This document shows positions 27,066-35,272 of a stretch of 64,000 bases of DNA, piece by piece (position 1 is the first letter of the stretch; each line of letters opens with the position of its first letter). Source of the DNA: Candidatus Sumerlaeaceae bacterium (GTDB taxonomy: Bacteria > Sumerlaeota > Sumerlaeia > Sumerlaeales > Sumerlaeaceae). The stretch spans positions 32,001 through 96,000 of the forward strand of contig JBMFRB010000007.1 of the NCBI GenBank assembly GCA_049968255.1. The letters run 5' to 3'. The notes below the pieces were generated by a model that was given only the letters and a program-made list of their open reading frames with translations, was not told the origin of the DNA and did not search any database. Made by a program: the position numbers and the translations under genes.

Positions 27066-28295
27066 ATGCTTTTCTGGACTATCGTCAAAGTTGCCCTTCG
27101 GAGCCTGGCGGCGAACAAGCTTCGCTCGTTCCTGACGATGCTCGGCGTCATTATTGGGGTGGCAGCCGTTATTGCCATGCTTGGACTCGGAGCTGGCACG
27201 CGCGAAAAGGTTATGGAATCGGTGCGCACCATGGGAGCAAACCTCCTGGTGATTCGCCCTGGGATGACTGGCGGCGGCACGGGCGTGTTCACCGCAGAGC
27301 GCGTGAATCTCAAAGTTGAAGATGCGCAAGCTATTCTAGCCCAGGTGCCCGAGATTGAAATGGTGTGCCCTGAAGTAACTGGCCGCTTTCAGGTGAAATT
27401 CATGAATAAGAACAGCCGTCCCAGCGTCAACGGCGAGGCGGCCACCTATTTTGCGGTGCGCAACTACGTGATTGATAGAGGGCGCGGTTTTACCGAGGGC
27501 GACGAATTGCGCAATGCGCGAGTGGCCGTGATTGGCCCCAAAACCGCACAAGACCTGTTTGGCGATCTGGATCCCATAGGGCAGACGGTCAAAGTGCGCG
27601 GAATCAATTTTCTTGTTGTTGGCGTGACAAAACCGAAGGGAGACCAGGGTTGGTTCAACCCCGACGATCAAGTGATCATCCCTTACACGACAGCGATGAA
27701 TCAGGTGATGGGGCGCGACAACCTGAGCAGCATTTACTGCAAGGTACGCAATGGTGCCGACATGACCACGGCACAAGACAAGGTCGCAGAGGTTTTGCGT
27801 CGGCAGCACCGGATCCAGCCTGGGATGCCGGATGACTTTACGATCCGCAATCTCCAGGAAATCTCGGATTCACTCAATCAAGTATCGAAAGTCTTCACCA
27901 TGCTTTTGGCAGGAGTCGCCGCGGTCTCGCTGCTGGTTGGCGGTATTGGGATCATGAATATTATGCTGGTGACCGTAACAGAACGGACGCGCGAGATTGG
28001 TGTGCGTAAAGCACTGGGAGCGCGAGCGATTGACCTCATGTCGCAATTTCTGCTGGAAGCCGTGGTGATTAGTTTGACGGGAGGGCTCATTGGCGTGGCC
28101 CTGGGTGTGGGAGCAATCGTGGCATTCAACAGAATCACTGAGGCTCTCTCGGGCTCGGCGTATGGGGCGCAGGTGCAGTTGCTCCCCATCGTGATTTCCT
28201 TTGGCTTCTCCGTTTTAGTTGGCGTGTTTTTCGGCTGGTACCCTGCTCGTAAAGCGGCAAAGCTCGATCCTATTGAGGCTCTCCGGTATGAGTGA
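27066..28295 (+). CDS. MacB-like (type VII) ABC transporter permease
   Basis: RSFLTMLGVIIGV, LVGGIGIMNIMLVTVTERTREIGVRKALGA, DPIEALRYE. Confidence 0.93.
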   Translation: MLFWTIVKVALRSLAANKLRSFLTMLGVIIGVAAVIAMLGLGAGTREKVMESVRTMGANLLVIRPGMTGGGTGVFTAERVNLKVEDAQAILAQVPEIEMVCPEVTGRFQVKFMNKNSRPSVNGEAATYFAVRNYVIDRGRGFTEGDELRNARVAVIGPKTAQDLFGDLDPIGQTVKVRGINFLVVGVTKPKGDQGWFNPDDQVIIPYTTAMNQVMGRDNLSSIYCKVRNGADMTTAQDKVAEVLRRQHRIQPGMPDDFTIRNLQEISDSLNQVSKVFTMLLAGVAAVSLLVGGIGIMNIMLVTVTERTREIGVRKALGARAIDLMSQFLLEAVVISLTGGLIGVALGVGAIVAFNRITEALSGSAYGAQVQLLPIVISFGFSVLVGVFFGWYPARKAAKLDPIEALRYE

Positions 28296-30084
28296 AAAAG
28301 TATTTGCGCGGAGTAGATGGGGGCTCGTCATCGCCTGTCTTGCTTTCGCGGTCAGTGGCTATGCCACGGAGTTTTCCACCGCGACGGTGGTACGCGGAAA
28401 AGCTTTGAGCATGAACCAACTGGAGGAGAAGGGGGAACACCTGGATCCGCTATCTTTACTTGAAGACCTTGACACGGCAACGACGACGCTTCCCGAATCA
28501 CCTTTGGAAGACAGCGCGCTCGAGGTGGGGACCAGGGAGAAGGCAACGTCGATTTCCCACAGTGCACTCAATCTTTTGCCGGCCACTCCCCTACCTGTTG
28601 CAGAGCTTGATTCGGTGAGTACCTCCGGAAAAGGCGCTCGCCCCCTCACCCTCATGGAAGCCCTTTGCTGGGCATTGGAGTCGAACCAGAGCCTGAAGAT
28701 TGAGCGTCTGCGTCCGGAAATTGCGGCGACGAACATTGAGAGCGCGTGGGGTGCTTTCGACACTCGTTTGTCAGCACAGGCCTCCGTAGGCAGTGCACAT
28801 TCTTCAACTTTGTCTCCACGCGCTAAGGATGCCCCGTCCGCACCGCGATCAGAGGACGAGAGGGTGGCTCGGAGTCGTGATCTTTCACTCGACCTGGCTG
28901 GGCGCCTGCCCACGGGCACGGACTACGACCTCGGCTTCGGGATCAATCGCTCGATAACGAACTCGACCTATCCTTTTTACTCTTCGGCGGTGAACCTCAA
29001 CATCACGCAGAACTTACTCAAGGGGGCAGGTCCGAAAGTCAACATGGTGCAAGTGCGCACAGCAGAAAACACCTATCTGATCTCGAAATATCAGCTCCAG
29101 CAGGTGCTGATTAATCTTATCACGAACGTGGAAAACGCGTACTGGGATCTCTATCTATCCTATAAGACGCTTGAGATCCGCCTTGAAGCTTACCGGTTGG
29201 CAAAGGAACAGCGGCACCGAACGGAAGAGCTCGTGCGTGTGGGGCGCGATACGCCCCTTGGACTGTTTAGTGCCCATGCGGAAGAAGCTGCGCGTATTTC
29301 AGACGTGATCAACGCCGTGGCTGAAGTGAAGCGCCGGCGAATCAATTTCATCCAATTGGTGAATCCGGAGCGAGTGCCAGCTGGCTGGGAGACACGTATT
29401 TTCCCTCGGGAGGAGCCCGTGGTTCCGAACGAACCCCTGCTGCCAGAGCAGCATGTGGTGGTGGCTATGAAATACCGCCCCGACCTTCAACAGGCACAAC
29501 TGGATTTGGCCAATGGCGAACTCGAAGTTGTGCGGACGCGCAATGGGTTGTTACCTGTGCTTGATTTTTTCACCGATGTGGGATGGGCGGCCAAAGGCGA
29601 CAATCTTAGCGATACAAATTCGCGCTTGGGAGATTATCCGAGTTGGCGAGTAGGGCTGCAGTTTTCGTACCCGTTGCAAAATCGAACAGCGCGAGCAGCT
29701 TATCGCAGAGCGGAATTCAACCGGGCGCTGGCGACAGAAGCCATTGAGAATTACAAGCAAATCATCGAGGTGGATGTGCGTTTGGCCATCAATGAGATTG
29801 AGCGGACAAAGCGCCTGATTGATTCCACCCACATCACACGACTGCTTCGCGAAGAAGAGCTTGCAGCGGAGATCGAGAAATTTCGTGTAGGGCGTTCGAC
29901 ACAGCTGTTGGTAGCGCAGGCGCAGCGCGATTTGACGGCCGCACGCGTGGATGAGATTTCGGCGGTCGTGGCGCACATCAAGGCCTATCTCAACCTCTTC
30001 AAAGCTGAAGGAAGCGTTTTGCAACGCCGCGGAATCCAGCCCGTGGTCAACGTTGCTAGAACTGGAGTCAGAGGGCGCCAATGA
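28288..30084 (+). CDS. TolC-family outer membrane efflux protein
   Basis: Signal peptide, two OEP-like repeats ('VENAYWDL', 'EKFRVGRST'); ATG overlaps the permease stop. Confidence 0.88.
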   Translation: MSEKVFARSRWGLVIACLAFAVSGYATEFSTATVVRGKALSMNQLEEKGEHLDPLSLLEDLDTATTTLPESPLEDSALEVGTREKATSISHSALNLLPATPLPVAELDSVSTSGKGARPLTLMEALCWALESNQSLKIERLRPEIAATNIESAWGAFDTRLSAQASVGSAHSSTLSPRAKDAPSAPRSEDERVARSRDLSLDLAGRLPTGTDYDLGFGINRSITNSTYPFYSSAVNLNITQNLLKGAGPKVNMVQVRTAENTYLISKYQLQQVLINLITNVENAYWDLYLSYKTLEIRLEAYRLAKEQRHRTEELVRVGRDTPLGLFSAHAEEAARISDVINAVAEVKRRRINFIQLVNPERVPAGWETRIFPREEPVVPNEPLLPEQHVVVAMKYRPDLQQAQLDLANGELEVVRTRNGLLPVLDFFTDVGWAAKGDNLSDTNSRLGDYPSWRVGLQFSYPLQNRTARAAYRRAEFNRALATEAIENYKQIIEVDVRLAINEIERTKRLIDSTHITRLLREEELAAEIEKFRVGRSTQLLVAQAQRDLTAARVDEISAVVAHIKAYLNLFKAEGSVLQRRGIQPVVNVARTGVRGRQ

Positions 30085-31460
30085 AAAAGACGGTCGTTAT
30101 GGCCATCCTCGTCGTGGTTGGTGTTGGGATTTATTGGAAATGGGGGCGTGCTGCCAAATCTCCGGCAAGCGAAGTGGAAGCGGCTCCACGAACGGTCAAG
30201 GTGGAACGTGGCACCATCGAACTGAAAGTGTCAACGACGGGGCGCGTCGTGGCAAATCGCGACGTGGATATCAAGTCGAAAGCTAGTGGGCAAATCATCC
30301 GCTTTCCGTATGACATCAGCGATCCAGTGACCAGCGGCGCCTTGCTAGCGGAGCTCGACCCGGTTGATGAAATCCGAAATGTGACACAACGCGAGGCCGC
30401 ACTGATTTCAGCGAAAGCGCGATTGGAGCAAGCCAAACAAGACTACGAAGTGGCGCTAGTGAACATGGAGACGCAGACGTCTAGCGCGCTTGCCGAGCTG
30501 GCGGCCGCAACAATTCGCGAACGCGATGCACGGTCTCGCTTGGCCCGCGAGGAGGAGTTATACAAAAAAGGACTGACGACAAAAGAAGCGCTCGACGCGG
30601 CACGAAGCGAAGCAGCCAGCGCGGCAAATCAAATGCGCCAGGCTGAAGTGAAGGTTGCGCAAACGAAAAACTTCCCGCGTACGGTGGAAATGAAGCGCCA
30701 AGACATCCTCTTGGCGGAAGCGGACGTAAAAAGAGCCCAAGTAGACTTGCAAAACGCACAGCAGCGGTTGCGTGAGACAAAAATTTTCGCTCCTATGGAT
30801 GGGGTGGTGACCGCAAAGATGGTGCAGGAAGGGCAAATTATCTCCTCGGGAATTTCGAACGTTGGTGGCGGCACGACCCTTATGACGCTGAGCGATCTTT
30901 CGCGCATTTTTGTGAACGCCAACGTCGACGAATCGGACATAGGTAAAGTGAAATTGGGGCAACGGGCCACCATCACTTGCGATGCTTATCCGGGCAAACG
31001 TTTCCGAGGCAAGGTTGTGCGGATTGCCACAAAAGGCACAAATAATAATAACGTTGTGACCTTTGAGGTGAAAATCGAGATTGAAGGGGAAGGAAAAGAG
31101 CTGCTGCGGCCAGAAATGACTGCGAATGTTGAGATCCAGGCTGACCGCAAAGAAGATGTACTGCTTTTGCCAAATGAAGCTGTGCAGTACGGACGTATGG
31201 GCTACTTCGTCGAGGTCAAGAAAGAAGACGATCCGACCACAACCGTGAGAAAACCGGTGAAAACCGGCATCACAGATGGGCTTCAGACGGAAATTATCGA
31301 AGGCGTGAAAGAGGGCGAAGAGGTCCTTGTTCCGACAACGATTCAAAGCCGATGGGTTCAGGGGCAAGGCGGACCTGGTCAACGCAGTGGAGCAAACTTT
31401 GACCGCGGTATGCGGATGGCGACGTTCCGTTTGAGTGGAGCGGGAGGTGGCAGACGGTAA
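30081..31460 (+). CDS. Membrane fusion protein / periplasmic adaptor (MacA-like)
   Basis: N-terminal TM, VDIKSKASG, long coiled-coil hairpin, IFAPMDGVV, VDESDIGKV, LRPEMTANV. Confidence 0.92.
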   Translation: MKKTVVMAILVVVGVGIYWKWGRAAKSPASEVEAAPRTVKVERGTIELKVSTTGRVVANRDVDIKSKASGQIIRFPYDISDPVTSGALLAELDPVDEIRNVTQREAALISAKARLEQAKQDYEVALVNMETQTSSALAELAAATIRERDARSRLAREEELYKKGLTTKEALDAARSEAASAANQMRQAEVKVAQTKNFPRTVEMKRQDILLAEADVKRAQVDLQNAQQRLRETKIFAPMDGVVTAKMVQEGQIISSGISNVGGGTTLMTLSDLSRIFVNANVDESDIGKVKLGQRATITCDAYPGKRFRGKVVRIATKGTNNNNVVTFEVKIEIEGEGKELLRPEMTANVEIQADRKEDVLLLPNEAVQYGRMGYFVEVKKEDDPTTTVRKPVKTGITDGLQTEIIEGVKEGEEVLVPTTIQSRWVQGQGGPGQRSGANFDRGMRMATFRLSGAGGGRR

Positions 31461-31462
31461 TC

Positions 31463-32188
31463 GTGACCCACAGCATAGATTTGCGCAACATCGTGAAAAT
31501 CTACAAAATGGGCGACCAGGAAGTGCGAGCAGTGGATGGCGTGTCGTTCGTCGTTGAACCTGGCGAAATGGTAGCAATCACTGGCGCGTCAGGGAGCGGG
31601 AAAACGACGCTCATGAACATCATCGGATGCCTGGACCGTCCAACGTCGGGTCAGTACTTTCTCGATGGCGAGGACGTCAGTAAACTTTCCGAGAATGCTC
31701 TTGCGCGAATTCGAAATCGTAAAATCGGCTTTGTGTTTCAAAACTTCAACCTCTTGCCACGCATGACAGCGCTGGAAAACGTGGAGGTTCCACTGCTCTA
31801 TGCAGGATTCCGCCACGCGAAAGATCAGGCCATGGAGGCCTTACAACGAGTGGGCCTTGCGCAACGAGCGCATCATGAGCCAAATCAACTCTCGGGGGGA
31901 CAACGGCAGCGCGTGGCTATTGCGCGTGCGCTCGTGACAAACCCGACGATCATCCTGGCGGACGAGCCGACCGGCAACCTCGACTCGCGAACGAGCGTGG
32001 AAATTATGGAGCTATTCGCTGAACTCAACGAGCAGGGCGTGACGCTCGTTATTGTGACGCACGAGCCGGACATTGCTGCGTGGTGCAAGAGAGTGATTCA
32101 GATGCGGGATGGCAAAATTTTGGACGATCGCCCGATTGCCCCGCGGCGTCCCATGCTTGCGAAAGCGCAGCTAGAGCTTTCAAAATAA
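31463..32188 (+). CDS. ABC transporter ATP-binding protein (LolD/MacB-type)
   Basis: [32 protein letters not shown]. Confidence 0.95.
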
Positions 32189-32230: not shown

Positions 32231-32255
32231 CTTTGGCATGAAGAGGTCACCCAAG

Positions 32256-33344
32256 ATGGGCGTGATGAAGAAAAGTGCGGTTCGAAACAGCTCCGAGAAG
32301 TTTCGCGACAGGCACTTCTTGCGCTTGTGGACGCTCATTTATTTGCTGAGTACGGCGACCTGTTCTTATTCTTACCATCAAATGCTCAAGGAGCTAGAAG
32401 AGAGGGGCATTCCTTGCTGTCGTCGAACACTTTTGCGGGACCTGAGAGTTCTCCAAAGTGCTGGCTGGCCTCTCAAATGCACAACTCGACGCGACGGCTC
32501 GAAGTGGTGGCGCCTCGAGCTGAAGAGCGGAATTCCCCTTCCCTTTCCGGCGGAAGCTAATGAAGTCTTGGCTCTGGCTGTTGCTCGAAATGCTCTGATG
32601 CTTACGGATTTCGCCCAGCTGGTCAGATACCTCGACCAATTGTGGAACCGCGTGGGCCAGATCTACCCAGAGGGATACAGGCGCCTTTACGACGAGGTAT
32701 CCGCTAACGTTGTGGTGCAAAAAGCGTCGATGCGCGAAAAGATGCAGGACATCGGGCACTACGATCAGCTTATGCGGGCAATTGAGGAGCGACGTAAGGT
32801 CCAAATTACCTATCGCGACCATGAGGGACGCCTGTCGAAAGATCGGATTATTGCGCCACTAAAGCTTTTCATCGCATCGGGACACACGTATCTCCGTGCT
32901 TTTTGCTACCTCCGCGGAGAAAAACGGAATTTCAGGCTATCGAGGCTGCAGGGGCAAGTGGTTATGCTGCGAGAACAGTTTTCGGAAGAATTGCTCCGAG
33001 GCATTGACAAAGAGCTGGACTATGCTCTGGGCGGGTTTCATGCAAAACCAGAGCTCGTTGTGCTGGCCGTGGATGATATGCTGGCTAGTTATTTGGAAGA
33101 AAATCCGCTCCACGTTTCGCAAAAGATCGTAAGAGACAAACGATTTATCAAAGTAGAACTATTCGTAGGATTGAATGAAACGCTTTTCCACAAACTCTTG
33201 GGTTTTGGCGAACACATCCGCGTGCTAGAGCCAGCGAAGCTGCGCTTGCTCCTTGCCGAGCGCCACAAAGGCGCATTTGAATCCTTCTGCGAGCCTGACG
33301 GCAACGGGCATCAGCCAGAATTACCTCTGCTGGTAGAAGAATAG
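32256..33344 (+). CDS. HTH-WYL-WCX transcriptional regulator (PafB/PafC/YafY/BrxR-like)
   Basis: wHTH 'CCRRTLLRDLRVL'; WYL domain 'KVQITYR...IIAPLKLF...HTYLRAFC...RNFRLSRL'; WCX 'PLHVSQ...LLGFGEHIRVLEP'; GAGG before ATG 32256. Confidence 0.92.
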   Translation: MGVMKKSAVRNSSEKFRDRHFLRLWTLIYLLSTATCSYSYHQMLKELEERGIPCCRRTLLRDLRVLQSAGWPLKCTTRRDGSKWWRLELKSGIPLPFPAEANEVLALAVARNALMLTDFAQLVRYLDQLWNRVGQIYPEGYRRLYDEVSANVVVQKASMREKMQDIGHYDQLMRAIEERRKVQITYRDHEGRLSKDRIIAPLKLFIASGHTYLRAFCYLRGEKRNFRLSRLQGQVVMLREQFSEELLRGIDKELDYALGGFHAKPELVVLAVDDMLASYLEENPLHVSQKIVRDKRFIKVELFVGLNETLFHKLLGFGEHIRVLEPAKLRLLLAERHKGAFESFCEPDGNGHQPELPLLVEE

Positions 33345-33389
33345 GGCTACATCAGGCGCAACGAGGCTTGTCTCTTTTTTCACAACCTA

Positions 33390-33421
33390 TGACCACCCTT
33401 GTCACCCCTGCTTCGTACTTA
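33390..33421 (+). promoter_or_regulatory. Candidate WYL-activator operator/promoter: TGAC-N7-GTCA followed by TA-initiated -10-like hexamer
   Basis: TGAC-CACCCTT-GTCA at 33390-33404; TGTCAC-N10-TACTTA, same spacing as the PafBC TGTCGG-N10-TA-N3-T element (last T missing). Confidence 0.6.
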
Positions 33422-33424
33422 ACA

Positions 33425-33626
33425 GCGGAACGGCACGAGGGCTGCGGGTTCGCCGTGGGCAGGGGGGAACAACAAGGAGCCACGGCTGAGCTCAGGGGGT
33501 AGACGGCGCCTCGTGCCTTCCAAAACTCAAGGGGCTTGTGGAGGGTGGAAGAGGAAACCCCTAGAGACGAAGGCAGGGGGGCTGCGGATCGAGAGGATAA
33601 GGCATCTTCTCTCGATCCGCTTTTTT
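33425..33626 (+). ncRNA. Candidate structured non-coding RNA (~200 nt) of unknown family downstream of the WYL gene
   Basis: Long hairpin 33427-33521 (GGAA/TTCC, GGCACGAGG/CCTCGTGCC, GGGTTC/GAGCTC, GCCGTGG/CCACGGC); second hairpin 33526-33566; terminator; no ATG-started ORF; G-U wobbles favour the + strand. Confidence 0.55.
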
Positions 33627-33630
33627 GTTT
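33584..33630 (+). terminator. Strong intrinsic terminator
   Basis: GCGGATCGAGAG (33584-33595) / CTCTCGATCCGC (33609-33620), perfect 12-bp stem, followed by TTTTTTGTTT. Confidence 0.88.
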
Positions 33631-33637
33631 AGGAGCT

Positions 33638-33801
33638 AAGGAGTACATTTTCTTTGCGGTCAGCCTGGATATCGACGTTCGCTGTCTATTCTGGCCGCAG
33701 CAGCTCTTTTCCTTCCCCCTCAATCTCGATTGTTATTTCGAATGTCATAATGTTATTATTATTTCTCCATTCTGTGGCAATCCGCACAACCGTGCCTCGG
33801 A
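33638..33801 (-). pseudogene. Inverted, diverged fragment of the MacA-like MFP gene (matches 31003-31166) with an in-frame stop
   Basis: Hand alignment: 164 bp ungapped, 22 mismatches (~87%); reads RGTVVRIATEWRNNNNIMTFEITIEIEGEGKELLRPE*TANVDIQADRKENVLL. Confidence 0.9.
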
Positions 33802-34147
33802 GATGGCGCACCAGAATTTAGTATGTTGTGTCCTTACTGCCGATATTGCGCTCTGGTTCTGTGGACGTTGCTTAGGTATGTGGCATGTAAGGAGCGCGAA
33901 AAACATATGGCCCAGTGCAGGATTCGAGCTTTGAGTCGAAACGTCTCCTACTCGCGTGATTTGGCTACCCGAGATAGGTCTTTTTCCGGTTTCACGGTAT
34001 TCTCGTTTTCCAAGGCGGTAGGACTTGCGTGTCAGGCAAGAGCTTGGCAATGAAACCACGACGTGTGTGCCAAGTGTTGCTGCGCCAGCGGGCCGGAGCG
34101 TGGTTTTTCCTTTACCGCGCGTGGCCACAAGTCCGAGATACGGGAAT

Positions 34148-35272
34148 ATGCGTGTGGCCCTAGTGCACGACTGGCTCAATGGAATGCGGGGCGGTGAAAA
34201 GGTTTTTGAGGTGCTTTGCGAACTGTTCCCGCAGGCCGACGTCTATACTTTGTTCTATGAGCCACGGAAGGTTTCCCCTCTCATTCGCACGATGAAAGTG
34301 CATGAGTGGTGGGCCGCACGGTGGATTCCCTTCGCCCGGCGCTCCTATCGTTGGTTTTTGCCAGTGCTGCCCAGTGCGGTGGAACATTTCCCTATTCGCA
34401 ACTATGATCTGGTGATCTCTACTTCGCATTGCGTAGCGAAGGGGATTCGGCCTGAGCCCAAGACCACGTTGCATATCTCGTATTGCTTCACGCCGATGCG
34501 ATATTTGTGGGACAAATTTGACGATTATTTTGGCGATTTGTACCATCCAGCATCGCTGGCTATGCTGGCGATGCGCGCCTGGCTTCAGCAGTGGGATGTG
34601 AAATCGTCATCGCGTGTGACGCATTTCTTAGCACCTTCGGAATACGTGCGGGAACGGATCCGACGAATTTATCAGCGTGAGGCAATTGTTTTACCGCCAC
34701 CGGTGGATTGGAACAGATATTCGATGATCGAACGCCTGCCGTCGGAGTTCTTCCTTGTCGTGTCTGCGCTTGAACCCTATAAGCGGGTGGACGTAGCGGT
34801 GGAAGCCTGCAACCGGCTGCGCGTACCTTTGAAAGTTGTGGGCACTGGCACGCAACTTAGACGGTTGCGTCGGCTTGCAGGGCCGACGGTCGAATTTCTT
34901 GGCTGGGTAAGCGATTCGCAACTAGCAGCTCTGTATTCGTGTGCGCGGGCAGTTCTGTTTCCGGCGGATGAGGATTTTGGAATTGTGCCTCTGGAGGCGA
35001 TGGCATCAGGGTGTCCGGTCATCGCCTATCGCAAAGGTGGTGCACTTGAGACTGTGGTGGAAGGTCACACGGGGATTTTCTTTGATCAGCAGACGCCAGA
35101 GTCGTTGTGCGCGGCGATCGAAAAGTTCGAGGACATGAACTTTGATGAGGATTTTGGGCGACGTCATGCGCAGCGTTTTTCACGGGACATTTTCAAGGAA
35201 CGGCTGAAAGAGACGATTATTAAACTTGCTGGTTTGTCGTCTGGAACGATGCGGGCTGTACAATTGCCTTGA
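34148..35272 (+). CDS. Glycosyltransferase family 4
   Basis: MRVALVHDWL..MRGGEKV, YCFTPMRY, EDFGIVPLEAMASG. Confidence 0.93.
   Translation: MRVALVHDWLNGMRGGEKVFEVLCELFPQADVYTLFYEPRKVSPLIRTMKVHEWWAARWIPFARRSYRWFLPVLPSAVEHFPIRNYDLVISTSHCVAKGIRPEPKTTLHISYCFTPMRYLWDKFDDYFGDLYHPASLAMLAMRAWLQQWDVKSSSRVTHFLAPSEYVRERIRRIYQREAIVLPPPVDWNRYSMIERLPSEFFLVVSALEPYKRVDVAVEACNRLRVPLKVVGTGTQLRRLRRLAGPTVEFLGWVSDSQLAALYSCARAVLFPADEDFGIVPLEAMASGCPVIAYRKGGALETVVEGHTGIFFDQQTPESLCAAIEKFEDMNFDEDFGRRHAQRFSRDIFKERLKETIIKLAGLSSGTMRAVQLP

Follow-up and report, generated by a model that had tools for sequence, protein, structure and literature searches.

A WYL-type regulator gene and an adjoining predicted non-coding RNA in a Sumerlaeaceae genome

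The WYL-domain activators PafBC, DriD, DdaA and SiwR represent a recently understood second route of DNA-damage sensing beside LexA, and the targets named for them in the available portions of the sources are protein genes. A locus in the stretch of 64,000 nucleotides analysed here (the window, on whose forward strand all the features below are read) raises the question of whether such a regulator may have a structured non-coding RNA as its target, as was put forward in the original prediction. A conserved non-coding RNA under a WYL promoter would, if true, extend this pathway to post-transcriptional control, and the locus provides Sumerlaeota, an uncultured phylum, with its first predicted WYL regulon. 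The reading favoured here, with moderate confidence, is that a WYL activator would fire a ~200-nt Hfq-type trans-acting small RNA (sRNA) as one output of a small regulon. The window belongs to an uncultured hot-spring bacterium of Candidatus Sumerlaeota, family Sumerlaeaceae, whose genome (G000) was compared with related genomes of the family (G001, G002, G003 and so on), ten with the WYL gene and three without it.

The WYL regulator

The regulator gene (32256-33344) starts with the ATG at 32256 and encodes 362 amino acids, an in-frame ATG at 32238 being a possible alternative start, and its stop is the TAG at 33342-33344. The Pfam domains WYL (PF13280, E 2.1e-16) and WCX (PF25583, E 2.4e-08) were matched by the product, both above the cut-offs, while no Pfam HTH domain was matched; the AF2 model contains a winged HTH (wHTH), a three-helix bundle, WYL and WCX in this order (helices 40-49 and 56-68, strands 73-87, helices 101-151), with an uncertain domain arrangement at a pTM of only 0.33. 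The best Foldseek matches of the model were DriD (8tp8, E 1.1e-14) and PafBC (2.5e-13), both aligned at full length over 332-344 columns, and the repressors CapW and BrxR ranked below them at about 6e-08 to 1e-07. By phmmer against the PDB, the best sequence matches were PafBC (6sj9, E 5.1e-09) and PafC, and DriD was not listed. The residues R57 and R61 of the recognition helix are invariant in 10 of the 10 orthologs, as are R224, F226 and R230 of the FRLSR motif, which aligns to the same motif in PafBC and lends indirect support to a putative activation by ssDNA in the WYL domain. An arginine pair spaced by four residues is thereby common to the recognition helices of this protein and PafBC, where R46 and R50 of PafB read the GTC triplet (PMC8635444).

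By sequence and model, the product is an HTH-WYL-WCX (class A WYL) transcription factor with the fold nearest to the activators DriD and PafBC, and the relationship originally proposed was borne out by Pfam, the PDB sequence search, the AF2 model and Foldseek alike. The module of the original prediction is not a mobile one: the regulator is chromosomal, present in a single copy and spread family-wide, and PF13280 has one match in the whole genome.

The predicted promoter and its regulon

The layout that had been described behind the gene was recovered by direct reading: 45 nt (33345-33389) after the stop there is a palindrome composed of TGAC (33390-33393), N7 and GTCA (33401-33404), then an 11-nt spacer (33405-33415) and the -10-like hexamer TACTTA (33416-33421). 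Just past the stop, the terminator scan found a weak terminator-like hairpin with a T-run (33353-33380), in which TCTCTTTTTT follows a stem of 5 pairs (33353-33370); some of the WYL transcripts may stop there. The predicted WYL operator (33381-33404), delimited by sequence and conservation, comprises the distal extension CACAACCTA and the palindrome (33390-33404), and the spacer with the -10-like element (33405-33421), assigned by sequence, completes the site, which has no -35 hexamer; no promoter was found at 33405-33421 by the sigma-70 scan.

Genome searches for the motif were carried out with IUPAC patterns. With 70 occurrences in the genome, the bare TGAC-N7-GTCA is not special alone, and the 16-nt core motif with one mismatch gave 23 occurrences versus 19 in the control, i.e., no excess, while the extended motif CACAANNNRTGAC-N7-GTCA was found 3 times versus 0 for the reversed control. 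The feature is considered to exceed chance because of this last difference and because a like site lies beside the related WYL orthologs. A motif match with a perfect TATAAT falls within a coding frame and was put down to chance.

Conservation of the palindrome beside the WYL homologues, proposed earlier as a check, was found in eight of the ten WYL-bearing genomes of the family, where the form GTGACC-N4-yTGTCAC-N10-TA adjoins the gene; these sites fit TGAC-N6-TGTCR-N11-TA, the TA itself being part of the search pattern. The TA at the N10 spacing of the PafBC type is present at 8 WYL-adjacent sites, and it is the only conserved portion of the -10 hexamer, the last position being T, as at PafBC promoters, in only 3 of 13 sites. 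In G001, a pair of neighbouring sites differs in spacing and lacks TA at the N10 position, and in G003 no site was found within its 4-kb WYL locus. Among the genomes lacking the WYL gene, the pattern had 0 matches in G005 and G009 and 2 in G008, the latter being without the TGACC form and, judged by eye, coding. All three extended-motif sites of G000 recur at orthologous places in G002, namely at the RNA, in the cse1/pyrH intergenic region and at a helicase gene. The site geometry matches the GAC-N7-GTC core of DriD and DdaA together with the tGTCgg(N10)tA spacing of PafBC, and, on these comparisons, the palindrome with its TA element is supported as a conserved predicted promoter type tied to the WYL gene.

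The two further sites in G000 concern protein genes: the extended motif is found again in the cse1/pyrH intergenic region, ahead of a type I-E Cascade operon (Cas5-HNH, Cas3-less), and upstream of an Lhr-like helicase gene. Across the genomes, sites precede the Cascade operon in G000 and G002, cas3 in G006, and a helicase gene. The gene lhr reportedly belongs to the PafBC regulon, and a helicase is in the predicted regulon here likewise. Because the same motif precedes the Cascade operon and the helicase in G000, the RNA is predicted to be not the sole target; it would be one member of a small damage/defence regulon. The original prediction of a non-coding RNA rather than a protein gene as the target agrees with the unit without ORF and with a terminator in four genomes and is too narrow in view of these two sites, as is the accompanying picture of a two-part module of sensor and RNA; homologous loci with a protein gene in that place, which had been named as evidence against the RNA, were encountered in 5 of 10 genomes.

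It is unlikely, on balance, that no separate RNA gene exists and that 33345-33627 is the 3' UTR of the WYL mRNA, with the palindrome as a repressor-type or roadblock autoregulatory operator such as those of CapW and BrxR. The weak post-stop hairpin (5 pairs) could plausibly be read through, the match to a -10 hexamer is poor and gave no promoter in the sigma-70 scan, and CapW and BrxR are also among the fold matches; however, these repressors trail DriD and PafBC, both activators, by about six orders of magnitude in the fold comparison, the sites are without -35 as at the PafBC and DriD promoters, and G001 has two full promoter-to-terminator units in tandem. Moreover, five other genomes have the same WYL-adjacent site with N10-TA ahead of protein genes that possess ribosome-binding sites, and the divergent or inverted arrangement there rules out a role as a 3' UTR.

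The predicted RNA and its counterparts in relatives

The predicted non-coding RNA of ~200 nt (33427-33627), with the start placed by the -10-like element and the end by the terminator, is recognised by the absence of ATG (none between 33422 and 33627) and of a conserved ORF, by its fold and by its terminator. The fold of 33420-33630 has -88.2 kcal/mol (z = -3.3), and 0 of 200 shuffles were as stable. The MFE and centroid structures contain a long imperfect 5' hairpin (33427-33521), whose apical region carries the first GGCAGGGG motif (33458-33465), and the RNA of G002 forms a long hairpin that resembles it, down to a base of the GGCACGAG/CUCGUGCC type. A purine-rich tract (33540-33579), mostly unpaired in the centroid structure, includes GGAAGAGGAAA with its A-R-N repeats and the second GGCAGGGG (33572-33579), and is a candidate seed or protein-binding module. 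The motif GGCAGGGG has 112 occurrences in 2 x 3.12 Mb, yet two of them are in this RNA. The intrinsic terminator (33584-33626), evident from sequence and fold, is formed by pairing of GCGGATCGAGAG (33584-33595) with CTCTCGATCCGC (33609-33620) and the T6 at 33621-33626; it was missed by the generic terminator scan because its loop exceeds the limit of that scan. Sequence and fold have therefore confirmed the segment as first described, i.e., free of ATG, beginning at the hairpin base at 33427 and ending in a perfect 12-bp terminator with T6. The suggested comparison with Rfam 15 gave nothing at the gathering score in the region (the best match, E 0.54, covered the terminator only), and the G001, G002 and G006 loci likewise had no match at E <= 0.1; no Rfam family matches the region.

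Five copies of the RNA unit were found in four genomes (G000 and three others), each just past the WYL stop and on the same strand, with lengths of 150-215 nt, 54-63% purine and a strong terminator, directly before which GGCAGGGG is located in 4 of the 5 copies. Related GGCAGGGG copies are also present in the RNAs of G002 and G006, mostly unpaired in the centroid folds. The fold z-scores of the five copies are -3.3, -6.2, -2.05, -2.1 and -3.1. In the tandem pair of G001, promoter and terminator are kept and the middle has diverged, and the alignment of the five RNAs is unreliable outside these two parts, the RNAs being not alignable across genera. When the G000 fold was mapped on G002 by a sequence-based alignment, 33 of 63 pairs were kept, 6 of them by double changes, and 30 were broken; therefore, conservation of the structure is not demonstrated. 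BLAST of the G000 RNA had no match in 40 relatives and found only itself in its own genome, and metagenome scans for further relatives returned none, the contig scan giving only two loci already known. The segment behind the promoter in four genomes, with no conserved ORF and a strong terminator, is on this evidence supported as a predicted non-coding RNA.

Proposed mechanism, known systems and alternatives

According to the favoured reading, the WYL protein would be a homodimer-type relative of DriD, PafBC and DdaA, whose WYL domain would be loaded with single-stranded nucleic acid arising from DNA damage or invading DNA. The two wHTH domains of the loaded protein would bind the GAC-N7-GTC palindrome that takes the place of a -35 element, the proximal GTC being at a fixed distance of 10 nt (after GTCAC) from the -10 element that starts with TA, and this binding would recruit or adapt the housekeeping RNA polymerase. 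The predicted promoter at 33390-33421 would thereby fire the RNA up to its strong intrinsic terminator, and the RNA would most likely act in trans as an Hfq-type sRNA through the exposed purine-rich tract and the GGCAGGGG motifs, the same regulon presumably including the type I-E (Cas5-HNH) Cascade operon and the Lhr-like helicase. The features expected of such an sRNA that are seen here are a predicted promoter of its own, no ORF, an intrinsic terminator with a U-tail, and an hfq gene in the genome; the conserved unpaired GGCAGGGG is a candidate seed. For mRNA targets, CCCCTGCC was sought near ORF starts in two crude scans and the complement by blastn-short, with chance-level matches only, and in the search of sequencing runs one DNA run had a small share of the words and no RNA run containing the stretch was listed.

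Sensor-regulator genes adjoining a terminator-ended, Hfq-type sRNA that they activate are known from the E. coli pairs oxyR-oxyS and gcvA-gcvB; those are LysR-type regulators in divergent pairs, whereas the present pair consists of a WYL regulator gene and an RNA that follows it on the same strand. Among WYL regulators, no published WYL-controlled sRNA was found in the literature searches. The DriD and PafBC motifs quoted in the original prediction are as printed in the papers. DriD of Caulobacter crescentus, a homodimeric WYL activator sensing ssDNA, has the same wHTH-3HB-WYL-WCX order, and in the available part of its source it binds pseudo-palindromic GAC-N7-GTC sites at the -35 place, at a fixed distance to the -10 of promoters without -35, as is predicted here (PMC13004042). 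Its identity to the present protein is 18-19% only, the half-sites differ (CGAC/GTCG in DriD versus TGAC/GTCA here), and the targets named in that part of the source are the protein genes didA, bapE, dnaG and recJ (PMC13004042), while one predicted target here is non-coding. PafBC, which acts by sigma adaptation in mycobacteria, shares the geometry, with tGTCgg(N10)tA(N3)T compared to GTCAC(N10)TA at this locus (PMC8635444); however, it is a heterodimer with a non-palindromic site in the pup-proteasome locus (PMC6789036), and the present genome has a single gene with a palindromic site and lacks a locus of that kind. The homodimeric class A activator DdaA recognises CGWCA-N5-TGWCG, with the same GAC-N7-GTC core, and its predicted regulon includes Cas gene clusters and repair genes (PMC12392091), comparable to the sites before Cascade, cas3 (G006) and the helicase. 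The DdaA motif is ~50 bp upstream of transcription starts, in contrast to the motif abutting the -10 here, and small RNA is encountered in that paper only in the reference list (PMC12392091). The promoter, in joining the DriD palindrome with the PafBC spacing, offers a way to ask how widespread sigma adaptation may be, and the predicted regulon ties a single sensor to an RNA, a repair helicase and a Cas5-HNH Cascade operon without Cas3, in parts small enough to make heterologous testing possible.

A rather improbable possibility is that the RNA is real and serves to bind protein, the purine-rich GGCAGGGG repeats being taken up as a sponge by the Sm-like WYL domain (feedback) or by another RNA-binding protein. 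The repetition of GGCAGGGG (two in G000, related ones in G002 and G006), its mostly unpaired state and the lack of an mRNA target in the searches above would fit this. The WYL-domain accessory protein of Cas13d is said to bind RNA. The fold of the WYL domain is Sm-like, and RNA has been discussed as a ligand of PafBC (PMC6789036); on the other side, the ligand shown for DriD, PafBC and CapW, so far as the available text of the sources extends, is ssDNA, and CsrA, the classic sponge partner, was not found in the genome. In a more specific version, held here as quite improbable, the RNA would be a dedicated partner of the WYL sensor, its exposed GGCAGGGG and A-R-N tracts binding the WYL domain with its Sm-like fold, or else Hfq in competition with that domain, and so resetting or amplifying the damage/invader signal and timing the CRISPR and helicase outputs; such feedback, if true, would be a type of protein-RNA circuit for which no example among WYL regulators has been described.

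Three other roles were rejected. A CsrA sponge of the CsrB/RsmZ type was discarded with 0 matches to PF02599 in the 95.75% complete genome. A sponge for a conserved CU-rich sRNA-like element was discarded with a duplex of -28.7 versus a shuffle mean of -26.4 (sd 3.1), 23% of the shuffles being as good. A crRNA-like regulatory RNA of the known CreA/CreR type was discarded on an alignment to the single repeat-like sequence beside cas2 that scored 13-14 versus a shuffle mean of 14.7; the genome assembly contains no CRISPR array.

That the region encodes a small protein, such as a damage-induced toxin or division inhibitor as under SOS or DriD, or a decayed protein gene, is very improbable. Related genomes do carry protein genes behind the same promoter, and the G000 region has frames of 15-38 codons that begin with GTG or TTG; however, there is no ATG, no peptide is common to the five copies, their frames run through the terminators, and the indels between the RNAs of G000 and G002 (4, 3, 1 and 8 nt) are not multiples of three. 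Furthermore, tblastn of the protein targets of the other genomes found nothing in this one, and decay would not preserve the motif and terminator that are kept in four genomes.

Very improbable too, finally, is a cis-acting, riboswitch-like leader or attenuator controlling read-through into the glycosyltransferase (GT) gene, since the WYL-RNA-GT order, although kept in all four RNA-bearing genomes, is set against ~520 nt between the terminator and the GT start in G000, GT orthologs without such an RNA upstream in G004 and G007 and with a different, CU-rich element in G003 and G005, two complete tandem units in G001, and no Rfam riboswitch match. This conserved downstream neighbour, a GT4 glycosyltransferase gene (34148-35272; Pfam Glycos_transf_1) outside the RNA unit, is 88% identical to its G002 ortholog from the ATG at 34148.

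The WYL regulator and the segment downstream of its gene

The WYL gene (32256-33344, plus strand) is located in contig C7 of an assembly of 3.12 Mb in 31 contigs (95.75% complete), and its product, in which the WYL and WCX domains were found with Pfam, belongs to the HTH-WYL-WCX family. No other WYL-domain gene is present in this genome, where LexA is also encoded. Orthologs were found with a 10-row profile (E <= 1e-30) in 10 of the 75 genomes of the phylum, all of the window's own family (G000, the genome of the window, and nine of the 12 others, G001-G012), one copy each; a single-protein search agreed on this distribution. The best PDB sequence matches were PafBC and PafC, while the Foldseek order was DriD (1.1e-14), PafBC (2.5e-13) and then the repressors CapW and BrxR (about 6e-08 to 1e-07); the winged HTH, three-helix bundle, WYL and WCX are visible in the AF2 model (mean pLDDT 72.3, pTM 0.33). 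Invariant in all ten orthologs are R57 and R61 of the recognition helix and R224, F226 and R230 of the WYL motif. In the PafBC study (PMC8635444), the GTC triplet is read by two arginines of PafB, with the same spacing as R57/R61. Because a single gene and a palindromic site are present, the protein is not taken for PafBC, and its predicted mode of action most likely resembles that of DriD and DdaA. An outer-membrane factor, an HlyD-type adaptor and an ABC ATPase, together a MacAB-TolC-like efflux set (28219-32188, plus strand), stop 68 nt 5' of the WYL gene, with which they might be co-transcribed.

All elements listed in the original prediction were recovered by direct sequence reading: the stop codon TAG (33342-33344), 45 nt, the palindrome TGAC-N7-GTCA (33390-33404), 11 nt, TACTTA (33416-33421), and a terminator with a perfect 12-bp stem (33584-33595 with 33609-33620) followed by T6, the putative RNA (33427-33627, plus strand) holding no ATG codon up to 33627. 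The region 33420-33630 folds at -88.2 kcal/mol (z = -3.3), with a long hairpin beginning at 33427. The segment matched no family of Rfam 15, the best match of a permissive scan being the terminator alone (E 0.54); the only gathering-level match in the window was a T-box leader (RF00230, 18401-18643, plus strand, 98.5 bits, E 1.9e-20), and a search of the window for tRNA and tmRNA found none.

The promoter element and its outputs in the family

The bare palindrome is common (70 copies in G000), and its meaning was therefore sought by comparing genomes. The same palindrome stands 3' of the WYL orthologs in G002, G001 and G006, and the pattern TGAC-N6-TGTCR-N11-TA gave 29 matches over the 13 family genomes vs 16 for its reversed control. 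The informative point is the placement of the matches, a WYL-adjacent site being found in eight of the ten WYL-bearing genomes: directly downstream on the same strand (G000, G002, G006, G012), directly upstream and divergent (G004, G007, G010), or about 0.9 kb downstream on the opposite strand (G011). G001 has two adjacent sites with the TA at a different distance; the 4-kb WYL locus of G003, with a helicase gene immediately 5' of the WYL gene, has no WYL-type site. Among the WYL-lacking genomes, G005 and G009 gave no matches and G008 two, without the TGACC form and coding-looking by eye. The consensus is GTGACC-N4-yTGTCAC-N10-TA, the TA having been included in the search pattern; positions of a -10-like hexamer past the TA are not conserved.

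Published motifs are tGTCgg(N10)tA(N3)T without a -35 for PafBC (PMC8635444) and ATACGAC(X)7GTCGTAT at the -35 position, at a fixed distance to the -10, for DriD (PMC13004042); that of DdaA is CGWCA-N5-TGWCG (PMC12392091). By comparison with these, the Sumerlaeaceae element joins the palindrome, shared with DriD and DdaA, to the promoter spacing of PafBC.

Behind the promoter, G000, G002 and G006 each have a 150-215-nt unit closed by a strong terminator, and G001 has two such units in tandem. The five units have a purine content of 54-63%, no common peptide and fold z-scores of -3.3, -6.2, -2.05, -2.1 and -3.1; they are too divergent for cross-genus alignment, and BLAST of the G000 RNA against 40 relatives gave no match. 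The sequence GGCAGGGG (112 occurrences in 2 x 3.12 Mb, two of them in the G000 RNA) stands directly 5' of the terminator in four of the five copies, and an A-R-N-rich tract persists, with GGAAGAGGAAA identical in G000 and G002; both features are mostly unpaired in centroid folds. The G000 and G002 RNAs differ by indels of 4, 3, 1 and 8 nt, and each folds into a long 5' hairpin whose base is identical in the two. Only 33 of 63 pairs were kept when the G000 fold was mapped on the sequence-based alignment, and conservation of the RNA structure is therefore not demonstrated. In the tandem units of G001 (locus L005, 2592-3024), the operator is identical in both copies, its right half, TGTCGG, agreeing with the PafBC motif, and the TA lies 15 and 21 nt past it vs 10 elsewhere; the two units could represent sRNA paralogues, or a variant of the promoter with another geometry.

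In G004, G007, G010, G011 and G012 a protein gene with its ribosome-binding site follows the adjacent promoter. Three of these proteins (275-318 aa; L037 of G010, L030 of G012, L039 of G011) are mutually similar, two of them matching Cas3_C weakly (E 3.6e-06 and 8.8e-04), and G004 and G007 carry a different protein of 256-294 aa without a Pfam match. The proposal of a non-coding RNA as the target is supported in the four genomes whose units share no peptide, and not in the five where the promoter drives protein genes.

The predicted regulon

G000 has exactly three copies of the extended motif CACAANNNRTGAC-N7-GTCA, vs 0 for the control. One belongs to the RNA, the second lies on contig C5 in the interval separating pyrH from a divergent operon, and the third is on contig C12, some 0.4 kb 5' of a helicase with 52-53% identity to that of G004. 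The original view of an RNA target instead of a protein gene is too narrow here, the same motif being also placed at the Cascade operon of C5 and upstream of the helicase. The C5 operon (C5:435-6583, minus strand, locus L074, outside the window) is type I-E-like and encodes Cse1 with a Cse2-like C-terminal part, Cas7, Cas5 with HNH, Cas6e and Cas1. No Cas3 was found in the genome by tblastn with the G006 protein as query, and the assembly contains no CRISPR array, with a single repeat-like sequence near the C5 contig start. The set resembles the Cas3-less 'HNH Cascade' variants. The interval from the WYL motif to cse1 contains a promoter-like TTGACA-N17-TATAGG.

G002 carries the extended motif at the three corresponding positions, twice without and once with a mismatch of one nucleotide, though the WYL proteins of G000 and G002 are only 58% identical. 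G006 has a second WYL-type site 5' of cas3, and the G004 sites precede a helicase, a radical-SAM gene (with a GAAC-N4-GTTC box also upstream), an ECF sigma gene and a small ORF. The 16-nt core with one mismatch allowed showed no excess (23 vs 19 for the control), and therefore the regulon looks small. CRISPR-Cas and repair genes are reported in the predicted DdaA regulon (PMC12392091), paralleled here by the sites at CRISPR-Cas and a repair helicase. On C12, a conserved block 5' of the helicase (~28440-28620, minus strand), with an ATG behind a purine-rich Shine-Dalgarno-like stretch, reads alike in G000 and G002 (M-[LM]-[SC]-R-E-[QE]-G-T-A...); it could be a small ORF preceding the helicase gene, or extend the helicase at its N terminus.

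Mode of action, competing readings and neighbouring elements

We consider it slightly likelier true than false that a homodimeric activator, sensing ssDNA, would bind the palindrome and let the housekeeping polymerase initiate some 6-8 nt beyond the TA, the output at the window locus being a terminator-ended non-coding RNA. With less confidence, this RNA may be an Hfq-type trans-acting sRNA: Hfq is encoded in the genome, CsrA was not found in it, the terminator of the RNA is U-tailed, and the RNA contains A-R-N tracts, which Hfq binds; against this, crude target searches gave complementarity at chance level only. A regulator gene adjoining an sRNA under its control is a known layout (oxyR-oxyS). 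Full-text literature searches turned up no paper on a WYL-controlled sRNA, and a 2019 PafBC paper stated that no mycobacterial small RNA was yet implicated in the damage response (PMC6789036).

One competing reading takes the segment for a 3' UTR whose operator is of the repressor type, another for an RNA that binds protein or acts in feedback. A small protein gene or a decayed gene is a further one; tblastn of the relatives' promoter-linked proteins found nothing in G000 beyond helicase and sigma-factor relatives, and therefore no trace of the decayed ORF named in the original prediction was seen under the RNA. A leader of the glycosyltransferase (GT) gene (34148-35272, plus strand) is a weakened reading, because the GT start lies about 520 nt past the terminator in G000, the GT orthologs of G004 and G007 lack any such element, and in G003 and G005 the element found with the ortholog is a different one.

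Between the terminator and the GT start (33640-34147), about 400 nt present in G000 are absent from G002; the interval includes an AT-rich patch (~33730-33790) with the region's only sigma-70-like promoter match, and unannotated ORFs of 76 aa (plus strand) and 144 aa (minus strand), the latter without a Pfam match. A second candidate small RNA, on G000 contig C4 (~197950-198100, minus strand), matches no Rfam family, and its complementarity to the purine-rich RNA is not significant; it is also found upstream of the GT ortholog in L061 (G005) and L063 (G003). A GGAACC-type promoter (ECF-like?) lies 5' of it, and its 42-nt core, with 95% identity between G005 and G000, contains a CU-rich CCUCCUAACCUC stretch; a terminator comes after the core.
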